A stretch of DNA of 64,000 nucleotides, from NCBI GenBank assembly GCA_963716175.1, contig OY970296.1, positions 4,000,001 to 4,064,000 on the forward strand, read 5' to 3'. Positions within the stretch are counted from its first letter, which is position 1, and each line of letters starts with the position of its first letter. Under the pieces are notes generated by a model. It saw only the letters and a list, made by a program, of their open reading frames with translations, made no database searches and was not told the DNA's origin. The DNA is from an uncultured Armatimonadetes bacterium. GTDB taxonomy: Bacteria; Armatimonadota; Hebobacteria; Hebobacterales; Hebobacteraceae. This document shows, one piece after another, positions 47,423 through 49,787 of this stretch. The position numbers and the translations under genes are program-made.

Positions 47423-47549
47423 CACCGTCTCCTCGATGCCGCTATGGCTTCGGCGCGTAGGGACCAGCACCTCTTGGCGCCGACCCGGACAGGAGGTCCG
47501 GACTCGCGCGGGAACACAGGGAGGCAAGAGGGAGATGCAATAACTGATG

Positions 47550-48977
47550 TCAAGGGGTAATCGTGCCTCTGGCATAGCGAGTAAGTTGGAGATGTGGCGG
47601 CTTGTTTTTCCCAGCGCTGATGGTAGAATTACGCTGGGGAGCGCGAGACCTCGACGCCGCCTTGAGTGGTCGTCCCGATTGCATCGGGGCTTGACCCGCG
47701 GCATCTCCAGTGAGGCGTCGCTCCCCCTTCGGTGTCTGGGCCATCTCTTCTCCCCGAGCGATTCCGCGCAGGGCGATCTCTTCCGACCAAGGTTGATTGA
47801 AGGTGAGCACGGCCCAGACGATCTCAGCCATCTTTCGGGCGATGGCACCTCCGGCTGCTTTCTTGGATTTGCCTCGGGCTCGCAGGCGGGCGTAGAAGTG
47901 GCGGATCGCCGGGTTGTATTGGCGGGCGGCGGCCGAGGCCACCAGCAGAGTCATCTTCAGCATGCGGTTGCCCTTGCGGGTCATGCGGAAGCGCAGCTTG
48001 GTGTCTCCGCTCTCCCAGGCAATGGGATAGAGCCCACAGTAGCCCACGAAAGTCTCTTTGTGCGGGAAGCGACGGATGTCGGCTGTCTCGGCCAGGATGG
48101 AAGCCACCGAGACCGGGCCCAGGCCCGGCACCGAAGCCAGAACCGTATCTGGGAAGAGCCGCTCCAGCTCCTGGGCGACGGCTGCGTCCATGCCGTGAAG
48201 GAAACGATTCAGTTGCAGGATGCGGACGGCCGCGTCCTGGATGGAGAGACGCGCCATCATCGGCAGTTGGCGCGCGGGGGCAGCTTTCGCCAGGGCGATC
48301 AGTTTCCGGGCGAAGGCGGCTCCGACACGCTTGCCGTCGGAGTTGCGCAACTCACTCAGGCGAGCCTCACCCCGCCGGAGCAGCTCCTGGGGCGAGGGGC
48401 AGGCGGCCAGCGCCACCAGGGTGCGGACGCTGAACTTGGCACCCAGCGTTTCCCGATAGCCGGGGAAGTGAGTGCGCAGCAGCCGGTGGAGCCGATTCTT
48501 GAGCGAGGTGCGATCCTCCACGCAGCGGCGCCGGGTGCGAGTGGCATCCTGGAGCGCTTCGAATCCCTCGGGCATGGGGGCGCGGGGCTGGGGGCGGATC
48601 TTCGCCAGGAATCGGGCGATCAGCTCGGCATCCACCCGGTCGGTCTTGGTGTCCTTGAGCTCCAGCTTGCGGAACCACTTGACCTCGCGGGGATTGAGCA
48701 CGTGCACCTGGATCGTCCGACGCGTCTCTGCCCGCAGCGCCTTCGCCGCCACCCGATGATATTCGCCGGTGGACTCCACCGCCGCCATCACCTGGGTGCC
48801 GCGACCGCACGCGCGTGCGATCACCATCACGGCCTCGCCGAGCGCGGCCGCGCCGGTCGCGTCGTTGGGGAAGGACTGCACGCCGCCGATGGGCGCTCCG
48901 CTGCCATCGCAGAAGCCGACCTCCAGGGAGCGCGACGAGACATCGATGCCCACGCACAACAACCTCGCTTCCGCCAT
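47550..48977 (-). CDS. IS110 family DEDD recombinase/transposase
   Basis: CVGIDVS, AVESTG, KTDRVDA (RuvC DEDD); VPGLG...WESG...GNRMLK, AIARK (Tnp domain). Start after GAGGAGG. Confidence 0.95.
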   Translation of the reverse strand: MAEARLLCVGIDVSSRSLEVGFCDGSGAPIGGVQSFPNDATGAAALGEAVMVIARACGRGTQVMAAVESTGEYHRVAAKALRAETRRTIQVHVLNPREVKWFRKLELKDTKTDRVDAELIARFLAKIRPQPRAPMPEGFEALQDATRTRRRCVEDRTSLKNRLHRLLRTHFPGYRETLGAKFSVRTLVALAACPSPQELLRRGEARLSELRNSDGKRVGAAFARKLIALAKAAPARQLPMMARLSIQDAAVRILQLNRFLHGMDAAVAQELERLFPDTVLASVPGLGPVSVASILAETADIRRFPHKETFVGYCGLYPIAWESGDTKLRFRMTRKGNRMLKMTLLVASAAARQYNPAIRHFYARLRARGKSKKAAGGAIARKMAEIVWAVLTFNQPWSEEIALRGIARGEEMAQTPKGERRLTGDAAGQAPMQSGRPLKAASRSRAPQRNSTISAGKNKPPHLQLTRYARGTITP

Positions 48978-49029
48978 ACACCACCTCCTCGGCAATGGAT
49001 CTGCCGCCAGCGCGGGAGCTCCTCGTCGC

Positions 49030-49222
49030 CTCCGGTCCCGCTTCGACTCCTGAATTGCGCGGTCGTGCCGCAGGTTGCAATCCAAGCTCCGGACCGGTCG
49101 CCGAGGGGTCATTCTCCTCTTCTCGGTCGCGCCGTAACTGAAATGAAGACCTCGCGCCCGACGCCCCGGCCCGGAGACTATAACCCACTCCATACTGGTG
49201 AAACCAGTACGGATATCCAAGT
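49030..49222 (-). ncRNA. Candidate IS110 bridge RNA
   Basis: Non-coding region between the junction -10 box and the recombinase. It has a 5' hairpin (TCCGTACTGG/CCAGTATGGA) followed by two large stem-internal-loop structures. Boundaries approximate. Confidence 0.65.
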
Positions 49223-49244
49223 TGCAGCATTATAGGAGTCAGCA

Positions 49245-49787
49245 ATGGCCGAGCAGCTATTCGATGGAGCGACTGCCTTCGTGATCGTGGACATGCTGAA
49301 TGACTTCGTGCGCCCGGGCGCGCCGCTGCGGGTGGAGGGAGCGGAGGCCTTGATCCCCATCATTGCCCGCGGCCGGCAGGCCGCCAGGCAAGCAGGGGCC
49401 AAGGTGGTCTACCTCTGCGACGCTCACCGGCCGGACGATCCAGAGTTCCGCGCCTGGCCACCGCACGCGGTCCGCGGCAGCCAGGGCGCGCAGGTGGTGG
49501 AGGAGCTCGCTCCCGAGGCGGAAGATACCGTCATCCCCAAACGCCGCTTCTCCGGCTTCTTCGGCACTGATCTCGATCTCAACCTGCGGGAGCGGGGGCT
49601 GCGGCGGCTGCTGATCTGCGGCATCCTCACCGACATCTGCGTCTATCACACCGCGGCCGACGCCGCCCAATTGGCCTATGAGGTGCTGGTGGCGAAGAAC
49701 GCAGTGGCGGCGGCCACGGAGGAAGACCATCAGTTTGCGCTCAAGCAGATGGCGCGGCTGCTCAAGGTGCGGCTGGCAGAGCTTTAG
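49245..49787 (+). CDS. Isochorismatase/nicotinamidase-family cysteine hydrolase
   Basis: IVDMLNDF, DAH..DDPEF..WPPH, KRRFSGF, GILTDICV. Confidence 0.9.
   Translation: MAEQLFDGATAFVIVDMLNDFVRPGAPLRVEGAEALIPIIARGRQAARQAGAKVVYLCDAHRPDDPEFRAWPPHAVRGSQGAQVVEELAPEAEDTVIPKRRFSGFFGTDLDLNLRERGLRRLLICGILTDICVYHTAADAAQLAYEVLVAKNAVAAATEEDHQFALKQMARLLKVRLAEL

Follow-up and report, generated by a model that had tools for sequence, protein, structure and literature searches.

A very probable bridge RNA in the left end of an IS110-group insertion sequence bordering host start codons in an uncultured Armatimonadetes bacterium

Bridge RNAs have been predicted for 85.7% of IS110 elements (PMC11208160), and 32,190 predicted bRNAs have been modelled in a preprint (10.64898/2026.10.21.760802); the class is already well known and catalogued at scale. 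In IS621, as described in PMC11208158, the top strand is cut after T9, and the handshake bases sit immediately 3' of those that bind the core; once strands have been exchanged, they pair with the other DNA. A promoter at the circle junction has also been reported for this element (PMC11208158, PMC11208160). IS900 of Mycobacterium avium subsp. paratuberculosis is another member of the IS110 family (Conde et al. 2021, PMC8141618). Our literature search found no paper combining 'bridge RNA' and 'IS900', and the main text of Durrant et al. 2024 (PMC11208160) mentions neither IS900 nor start codons, while its supplementary data may already list the family considered here.

The element described here lies in a stretch of 64,000 nucleotides from an uncultured Armatimonadetes bacterium (contig OY970296.1, positions 4,000,001 to 4,064,000, hereafter the window). 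It is an IS110-family insertion sequence of 1.7 kb on the minus strand (window 47531-49238), and sequence comparison indicates that positions 49030-49222 very likely encode its bridge RNA (bRNA, seekRNA), working in an IS621-like manner. Taken singly, the window sequence folds only modestly better than its shuffles and its guide-like matches are weak. The argument against chance comes from 31 homologous left ends and permutation tests.

The recombinase gene of the element (47550..48977, minus strand) encodes 475 aa with DEDD/RuvC-like and Tnp domains, as seen from its Pfam, NCBIfam and PDB relatives. It matches the Pfam families DEDD_Tnp_IS110 (PF01548, 5e-29) and Transposase_20 (PF02371, 2e-20) and scores 225 bits against the NCBIfam model NF033542, 'IS110 family RNA-guided transposase', for which the cut-off is 140. 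The nearest solved structures in the PDB are the ISCro4 transposase (E 1e-17) and the IS621 transposase (E 6e-16); the alignment with these best solved relatives is concentrated in the Tnp domain, and with IS621 only residues 279-397 align strongly. In the alignment with ISCro4, D113/D116 and E68 line up and the ESG motif, which contains S323, falls on the ESG of ISCro4; we infer that S323 is equivalent to S241 of IS621. The aligned residues, those of the D..D and ESG motifs included, do not vary in a set of 38 homologues.

A protein search returned 142 homologues at E <= 1e-20, and a metagenome scan with an alignment of 38 homologues yielded 35 loci of 36-91% identity, across which the 300 nt upstream of the recombinase gene are clearly homologous. 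The alignment on which most of the comparisons rest (A2) covers the two-loop region of 31 left ends and omits L038, which is near-identical to L034, L045, which has the second loop only, and the loci lacking the 5' part. A phylum-wide search detected a close homologue in only 2 of 400 other genomes, one copy being degenerate. The 67%-identical element L023 (G083 C193), from a genome of the same family, is such a degenerate copy, devoid of the upper hairpin of the donor-binding loop, of the right donor guide and of a TATA-type left end. A protein scan of genome contigs gave only relatives of 23-30% identity, which were left out of the analysis.

The genome holds four copies of the element, identical or nearly so and each with different flanks. 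Their alignment places the ends at flank...CTCC|TATAATGC... and ...TTATTGCATCTCC|flank, the right end also being written ...TTGACATCAGTTATTGCATCTCC|flank, and so vindicates the donor and target strings of the original prediction. By this four-copy comparison and an empty-site contig, the whole insertion sequence extends over 47531..49234 (minus strand), or 1704 bp with one CTCC copy counted. The empty-site allele comes from one contig of sediment metagenome run X5, which joins 47528 to 49234 with the element absent; contig breaks at 47531 and 49239 in runs X1 and X3 lead into the flanks of the other genomic copies. Four copies with different flanks and an empty-site contig thus show that the element is mobile and fix its ends well. 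One genomic copy, L004 (C1:782976-784682), differs from copy L002 by 3 mismatches and 1 gap; only residues 232-475 of its recombinase remain in one frame, and this copy is probably frameshifted and inactive.

The left target (LT, GGCCATTGCTGA, 49239..49251, minus strand) contains CAT at 49247-49245, followed by a 6-nt spacer. This CAT is the start codon of a plus-strand isochorismatase-family gene, whose ATG begins at 49245. The left CTCC copy that comes next (49235..49238, minus strand) is composed of the CT core (49238-49237) and of the CC with which the right donor arm opens, and is the reverse complement of the GGAG Shine-Dalgarno sequence of the host gene. At the other end, the right CTCC copy (47531..47534, minus strand) combines the CT core with the CC of the target's right arm and leads into the right target CTCTTGCC (47523..47530, minus strand), which in the empty-site allele is without its first C and reads TCTTG. 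The occupied site thus has one C more after the right CTCC, at window 47530, than the X5 allele; this extra C could be a strain difference or an insertion footprint. The left donor arm, ATTGCAT (47535..47541, minus strand), is defined by the four-copy alignment and the right ends of relatives. TATAAT (49229..49234, minus strand) forms the first bases of the left end, or right donor arm, and the first left-end hexamer in 29 related elements is TATAAT in 13, TATAGT in 7, TATAAC in 4 and another sequence in 5. The non-coding stretch of the left end measures 257 nt (49234-48978).

All four genomic copies sit at CAT-N6-8-CTCC, the reverse complement of GGAG-spacer-ATG. Among the metagenome loci, 25 have a left flank of 13 nt or more, and 13 of these show a CAT-N5-10-CTCC layout. 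Oriented insertion at sites like the CATG-N6-TCTCCTT of IS900, lying between promoter and ribosome-binding site, is hence seen in 4/4 genomic copies and in these 13/25 loci.

The MFE fold of 48977-49230 (minus strand) reaches -111.5 kcal/mol (z = -2.57), a value equalled by 1 of 200 shuffles. It includes a 5' stem-loop, CCGUACUGGU-UUC-ACCAGUAUGG (49190..49212), and a long stem, P1, between CUCCGGGCCGG (49166..49176) and CCGGUCCGGAG (49087..49097). The original prediction had read such a 5' hairpin (49212-49190), the two halves of the stem (CTCCGGGCCGG, 49176-49166, and CCGGTCCGGAG, 49097-49087), two strings in the first loop (TCATTTCAGTTAC, 49146-49134, and GAAGAGGAG, 49122-49114) and two in the second (ATTGCAAC, 49081-49074, and ATTCAGGAG, 49055-49047), and all of these are present on the minus strand where it placed them.

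The individual stems were assessed with RNAalifold and explicit pair counts over the 31 left ends. The target-binding loop is closed by P3, whose 5' strand GGUC (49148..49151, minus strand) pairs with GACC (49110-49107), and is topped by the P4 hairpin, (A)CGG-CGCGA-CCG(A) (49123..49135, minus strand). P3 and the (N)CGG/CCG(N) hairpin each have 95.2% of cells paired and compensatory changes in 3 of 4 pairs. The donor-binding loop lies between a basal stem, formed by GCUU (49087-49084) and the AAGC that precedes GGGACCGG (49032..49043 for both, minus strand; 99.2% of cells paired), and an upper hairpin, GCGG-CACGA-CCGC (49059..49071, minus strand; 96.1%). About 89% of cells are paired in the stem GCGUCG/CGGCG(A). 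Overall, the given structures pair 89-94% of cells across the 31 left ends, against 29-49% for control structures slid by 1-3 columns, and both-side changes occur in 21 pairs; shuffling the columns gives about 9-11 such pairs, and none of 500 shuffles attained 21.

The basal part of the fold is ambiguous. The large stem anticipated by the original prediction does appear in the MFE fold, and its outer five pairs are 85.8% paired, but its inner part is poorly kept, two inner pairs failing in 16 and 24 of the 31 sequences, and its 3' strand has another potential partner. The CCGGUCC segment of this strand can serve as the 5' strand of an alternative helix with GGGACCGG (49032-49039), downstream of the second loop (95% and 89% paired). 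One pair of this helix is U-A in 14 sequences and C-G in 13, a split that may reflect few events because the relatives share ancestry. The two partners of CCGGUCC, 49166-49176 and 49032-49039, are mutually exclusive and both show compensatory changes, the alternative one covarying at least as well as P1; the two pairings may represent an alternative RNA fold or a pseudoknot. What is kept across orthologues is a left end folding as a 5' hairpin and two internal loops. An Rfam search of the window region gave no family at E <= 10, apart from two noise matches.

The guides were evaluated by comparing loop segments with the flanking or terminal DNA of their own locus, against the DNA of other loci, in 5000 permutations; the resulting counts overstate independent events, because the permutations treat loci as independent and several loci share guides or target families. 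In the right target guide (RTG, GAAGA+GGAG, 49114..49122, minus strand), GGAG faces CT+CC and the three bases 5' of it face the next 3 target bases. Over the opening three bases of the right flank, the reverse complement of this triplet agrees at 75 of 87 positions (against a mean of 40.7 and a highest value of 56 in permutations, 0/5000), with complete 3/3 matches in 21 of 29 loci and ten different triplets. Position 4 is at chance (7/28), and the reach of the RTG is thus CT+CC+N3, seven bases.

On the donor side, the left donor guide (LDG, GGAUUGCAACCU, 49072..49083, minus strand) carries AUUGCA, equal to the ATTGCA of the right end. This 6-mer agrees with the right end in 26 of 26 loci and has changed together with it in three (ATTACA in 2 loci, ATTACT in 1). 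For the right donor guide (RDG, AAUUCA+GGAG, 49047..49056, minus strand), agreement is seen in the core-binding part and at the base opposite T1. Wherever a locus has data, the 4-mer at the left junction is the one predicted from the core-binding 4-mer of the RDG, and the base next to this 4-mer follows the change of T1 to A1 in L059; beyond the first base of the left end, no consistent register or clear covariation of distal RDG pairing was found among relatives.

Directly 3' of the core-binding bases, the target loop carries AA (49112..49113, minus strand) as its handshake guide, the first A matching the donor T at -1, and the donor loop carries UC (49045..49046, minus strand), whose U agrees with the A that immediately precedes CTCC in 3 of the 4 genomic targets. 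Across loci, the donor-loop handshake base is Watson-Crick complementary to target -1 in 25 of 32 cases (permuted mean 14.0, 0/5000) and to its own donor in 1 of 29. Likewise, the target-loop handshake base fits donor -1 in 23 of 26 cases (permuted mean 17.0, 5/5000) and its own target in 2 of 32.

The left target guide (LTG, UUCAUUUCAGUU, 49136..49147, minus strand) consists of a conserved CAU, five variable bases and UU facing the core; in the start-codon group it is 12 nt long and follows the pattern (U/G)UCAU+N5+(G/U)U. A match of loop 1 to the CAT of the host start codon, voiced as a possibility by the original prediction, is what this conserved CAU provides. When the LTG is anchored on CAT, 59 of 90 positions in the next five bases match the flank, whereas permutations average 31.4 and reach 48 at most (0/5000). 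By position, the matches are 10, 12, 14, 9 and 12 of 17, falling to 6 and 5 of 17 immediately thereafter.

Other registers were considered for this guide. A flush, IS621-like register was discarded for the start-codon group: where guide and flank both contain CAT (18 loci), it matches 50 of 180 positions, and 381 of 5000 permutations are as good. As the flush register does no better than permutation in this group, the geometry of the LTG may differ from that of IS621. An LTG ending on the first C of CTCC was likewise set aside, as it fits L002 (11/13) but L033, L031 and L029 need other offsets. A subgroup of 65% identity, L034-L039, has no CAU in the guide. Its target is a conserved ..GGTGA.ACC....GTGGGC..GTA.CG|CTCC|TTC.., which is not a start site; an Rfam search of seven related loci found no family, including over this repeated target.

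The window copy itself is the weakest example of a guide match. Its right flank, CTCTT, agrees with the RTG-predicted TCTTC at 1 of 5 positions, and the five variable LTG bases match at 3 of 5. The X5 empty-site contig, ...GACTCC|TCTTGCC, is one C shorter and fits the RTG prediction at 4 of 5.

Covariation of homologous non-coding ends against their targets was the check that the original prediction had proposed, and across the 31 left ends both guides and handshakes track the DNA. Its assignment of loop 1 to the target and of loop 2 to the donor, with the strands as guessed, is borne out by this guide-flank covariation, as is the proposal of a bridge RNA. It is exceedingly improbable that the fold is instead a structured 5' leader of the transposase mRNA, acting in translation control, with guide-like matches that arose by chance. 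Such a leader would be in keeping with a single-sequence z of only -2.57 and with matches that are short and imperfect, but four guide segments and two handshake positions covary with flanking or terminal DNA, and a leader has no reason to track DNA outside the element. The original prediction proposed a 4-nt GGAG/CTCC core, unlike that of IS621, and CTCC indeed borders both ends of all four genomic copies and of most relatives, with GGAG in both the RTG and the RDG. Seven relatives speak against it, in which the 4-mers facing the RTG and the RDG differ (for instance CTTC/CTCC, CTAC/CTCC and CTCC/CTCT), always at position 3 or 4 only, with CT invariant. Six of the seven (L035, L055, L057, L059, L062 and L063) have junction data, and all nine of their junction 4-mers obey one rule, the left ones being of donor (RDG) type and the right ones of target (RTG) type. 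With the differences confined to positions 3-4 and going with the right arms, the crossover is therefore placed after CT, which makes a crossover longer than the CT of IS621 very unlikely and leaves the 4-nt core unsupported. The core is CT, as in IS621, and CC is the conserved start of both right arms.

The placement of the LTG leaves more room for an alternative, in which this guide acts exactly as in IS621 on an ideal CAT-N5-CT target and the sites with 1-5 extra bases are near-cognate or half-match insertions driven by the RTG. Locus L051, the only one with a CAT-to-CT distance of 5 nt (6-10 nt in the others), has a flush match of 9/10 plus the core T, and elements without CAU in the LTG, which insert elsewhere, match flush at 57 of 110 positions (permuted mean 36.5, 2/5000 as good). 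Half-match insertion has been reported for IS621, and in the element's own genome flush sites resembling the 15-nt ideal begin at 2 mismatches, where there are 11, with none at 0 or 1. Against this, the five variable bases track the flank when anchored on CAT over spacers of 5-10 nt, which an ignored guide should not do, and the flush spacer of 5 occurs in only 1 of 17 loci. An LTG strictly of the IS621 kind thus appears rather unlikely. We conclude that the LTG is a real guide and that, in the start-codon group, the DNA between the guide match and the core varies in length. At up to 3 mismatches, the own-genome search for the ideal site gave 63+76 matches versus 45+44 for the reversed control. 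Four unoccupied sites on the forward strand (C1:224270, 508003, 3468898 and 4476661) fit the gapped pattern CATNTCAG-N0-6-CTCCTC, for which the reversed control gave 0 forward and 1 reverse; these are possible further targets.

The ends of the element also hold the two halves of a putative promoter. TTGACA is read directly in the right end (47548..47553, minus strand) at 17 nt from the end of the element, and of 28 right ends of related elements found by pattern, 24 have it at this distance. TATAAT begins the left end, where it would serve as the -10 box to this -35 box; a circle would therefore carry a consensus promoter. No circle junction was seen in the contigs of four DNA runs. In the life cycle that we propose, the element would leave the chromosome as a circle with its right end abutting its left end, and the junction would join TTGACA, 17 nt and TATAAT into a consensus sigma-70 promoter, from which transcription would yield first the left-end RNA, about 190 nt long, and then the recombinase mRNA. 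The RNA would comprise the 5' hairpin, a target-binding loop between the GGUC/GACC and (A)CGG/CCG(A) stems and a donor-binding loop between the GCUU/AAGC and GCGG/CCGC stems. Within the donor-binding loop, AUUGCA of the LDG would read the bottom strand of the right-end ATTGCA and the RDG (..A+GGAG) the top strand of the junction CT-CC-T. Within the target-binding loop, the RTG (N3+GGAG) would read the top strand of the target CT-CC-N3 and the LTG (CAU+N5) the bottom strand of CAT+N5, that is, the host start codon and the bases up to the Shine-Dalgarno sequence. As handshake guide, the base that follows each GGAG on its 3' side would match -1 of the other DNA, and, by analogy with the IS621 structures, a recombinase tetramer would cut the top strands after the CT core and exchange them. 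The target dictated by these guide pairings would therefore be CAT-N(5-10)-CT-CC-N3, and the element would land just upstream of the GGAG ribosome-binding site of a host gene, in one orientation, like IS900.

The opposite strand of the element carries a hed-like open reading frame of 562 aa (47547..49235, plus strand; from the ORF list and relatives) that spans it entirely. This antisense frame opens 13 nt inside the right end, following a TAA, and its TAG stop straddles the boundary between left end and core copy, taking TA from the former and G from the latter. Both ends were found for 26 related elements; the frame runs end to end in 12 of them and almost so in a further 2. The LTG carries CAU in all 14, while 0 of 11 without CAU keep the frame. 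Given the codon usage of host-like ORFs of the window, the recombinase gene by itself would be expected to contain 2.6 antisense stops, and the probability of none is 0.07. We hypothesize that translated read-through of this frame from the host promoter may keep the downstream host gene expressed.

These elements can be joined into a broader reading, put forward tentatively and with the odds somewhat against it, in which the bridge RNA is hard-wired to start regions through a fixed CAU that reads the start codon and a fixed GGAG that reads the complement of the Shine-Dalgarno sequence, five plus three bases and one handshake base choose the gene, the LTG match lies 0-5 extra bases from CT, and the antisense frame is perhaps coupled to it. 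The split, spacer-tolerant target recognition that forms part of this reading may be a mode not described for IS621. If the reading holds, the antisense TAG would overlap the ribosome-binding site left before the host gene, and read-through from the host promoter would keep that gene expressed and the insertion low in polarity. Tolerance of a variable spacer by the LTG, if true, would bear on off-target prediction and on the design rules of bridge recombinases.

Set beside IS621, the locus has all the sequence-testable defining features of that type except contiguity of the LTG with the core, and the element might count as a variant on one point only, a spacer-tolerant guide with its anchor on the start codon. 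As in IS621 (PMC11208160, PMC11208158), the RNA is located in the left end, upstream of a DEDD + Tnp recombinase, and comprises a 5' hairpin followed by target-binding and donor-binding internal loops. The core is CT, top-strand sequence is carried by the LTG and LDG and its complement by the RTG and RDG, the handshake bases lie directly 3' of the core-binding bases, and the RTG reaches over the core and 5 further bases, which are positions 10-14 in IS621 (PMC11208158). The differences are several: the recombinase has 475 aa, compared to 328 aa in the solved IS621 chain; both right arms open with a conserved CC, which creates an apparent 4-nt repeat; the 12-nt LTG has a fixed CAU, with a match anchored on the start codon at variable distance to the core; the LDG is one base longer than the DNA between ATTGCA and CT; and a full-length antisense ORF is present. 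The locus thereby offers a worked example far from IS621 in which the ends, the empty site, all four guides and both handshake bases are assigned, and it illustrates that a real bridge RNA can be picked from raw sequence read without tools.

Among other described systems, seekRNA, the term used for IS1111/IS110 elements (Siddiquee et al. 2024, PMC11187229), denotes the same class. It is likewise a short RNA from a non-coding region with overlapping matches to both target strands, encoded upstream of the transposase gene in the IS110 type; the elements tested in that study have other targets. In the IS110 element ISPpu10 (10.64898/2026.03.19.712850), target choice likewise involves more than contiguous RNA-DNA pairing; the extra determinant in that case is a DNA stem-loop by the target, whereas here it is the variable spacer from LTG to core, and no stem-loop was seen. 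In its choice of target the element resembles IS900. Its target motif, CATGNNNNNNTCTCCTT (PMC8141618), has the same layout as the CAT-N5-10-CTCC-T(C/T)(T/C) found here, and a complementary-strand ORF, 'hed', spans the whole of IS900 (PMC8141618), as the antisense frame does in this element. The likeness drawn here is one of target motif and antisense ORF, and the host here, unlike that of IS900, is an uncultured sediment bacterium. The long-known preference of IS900-type elements for sites between ribosome-binding site and start codon would, through guides of the kind proposed here, gain a simple explanation at the level of RNA.
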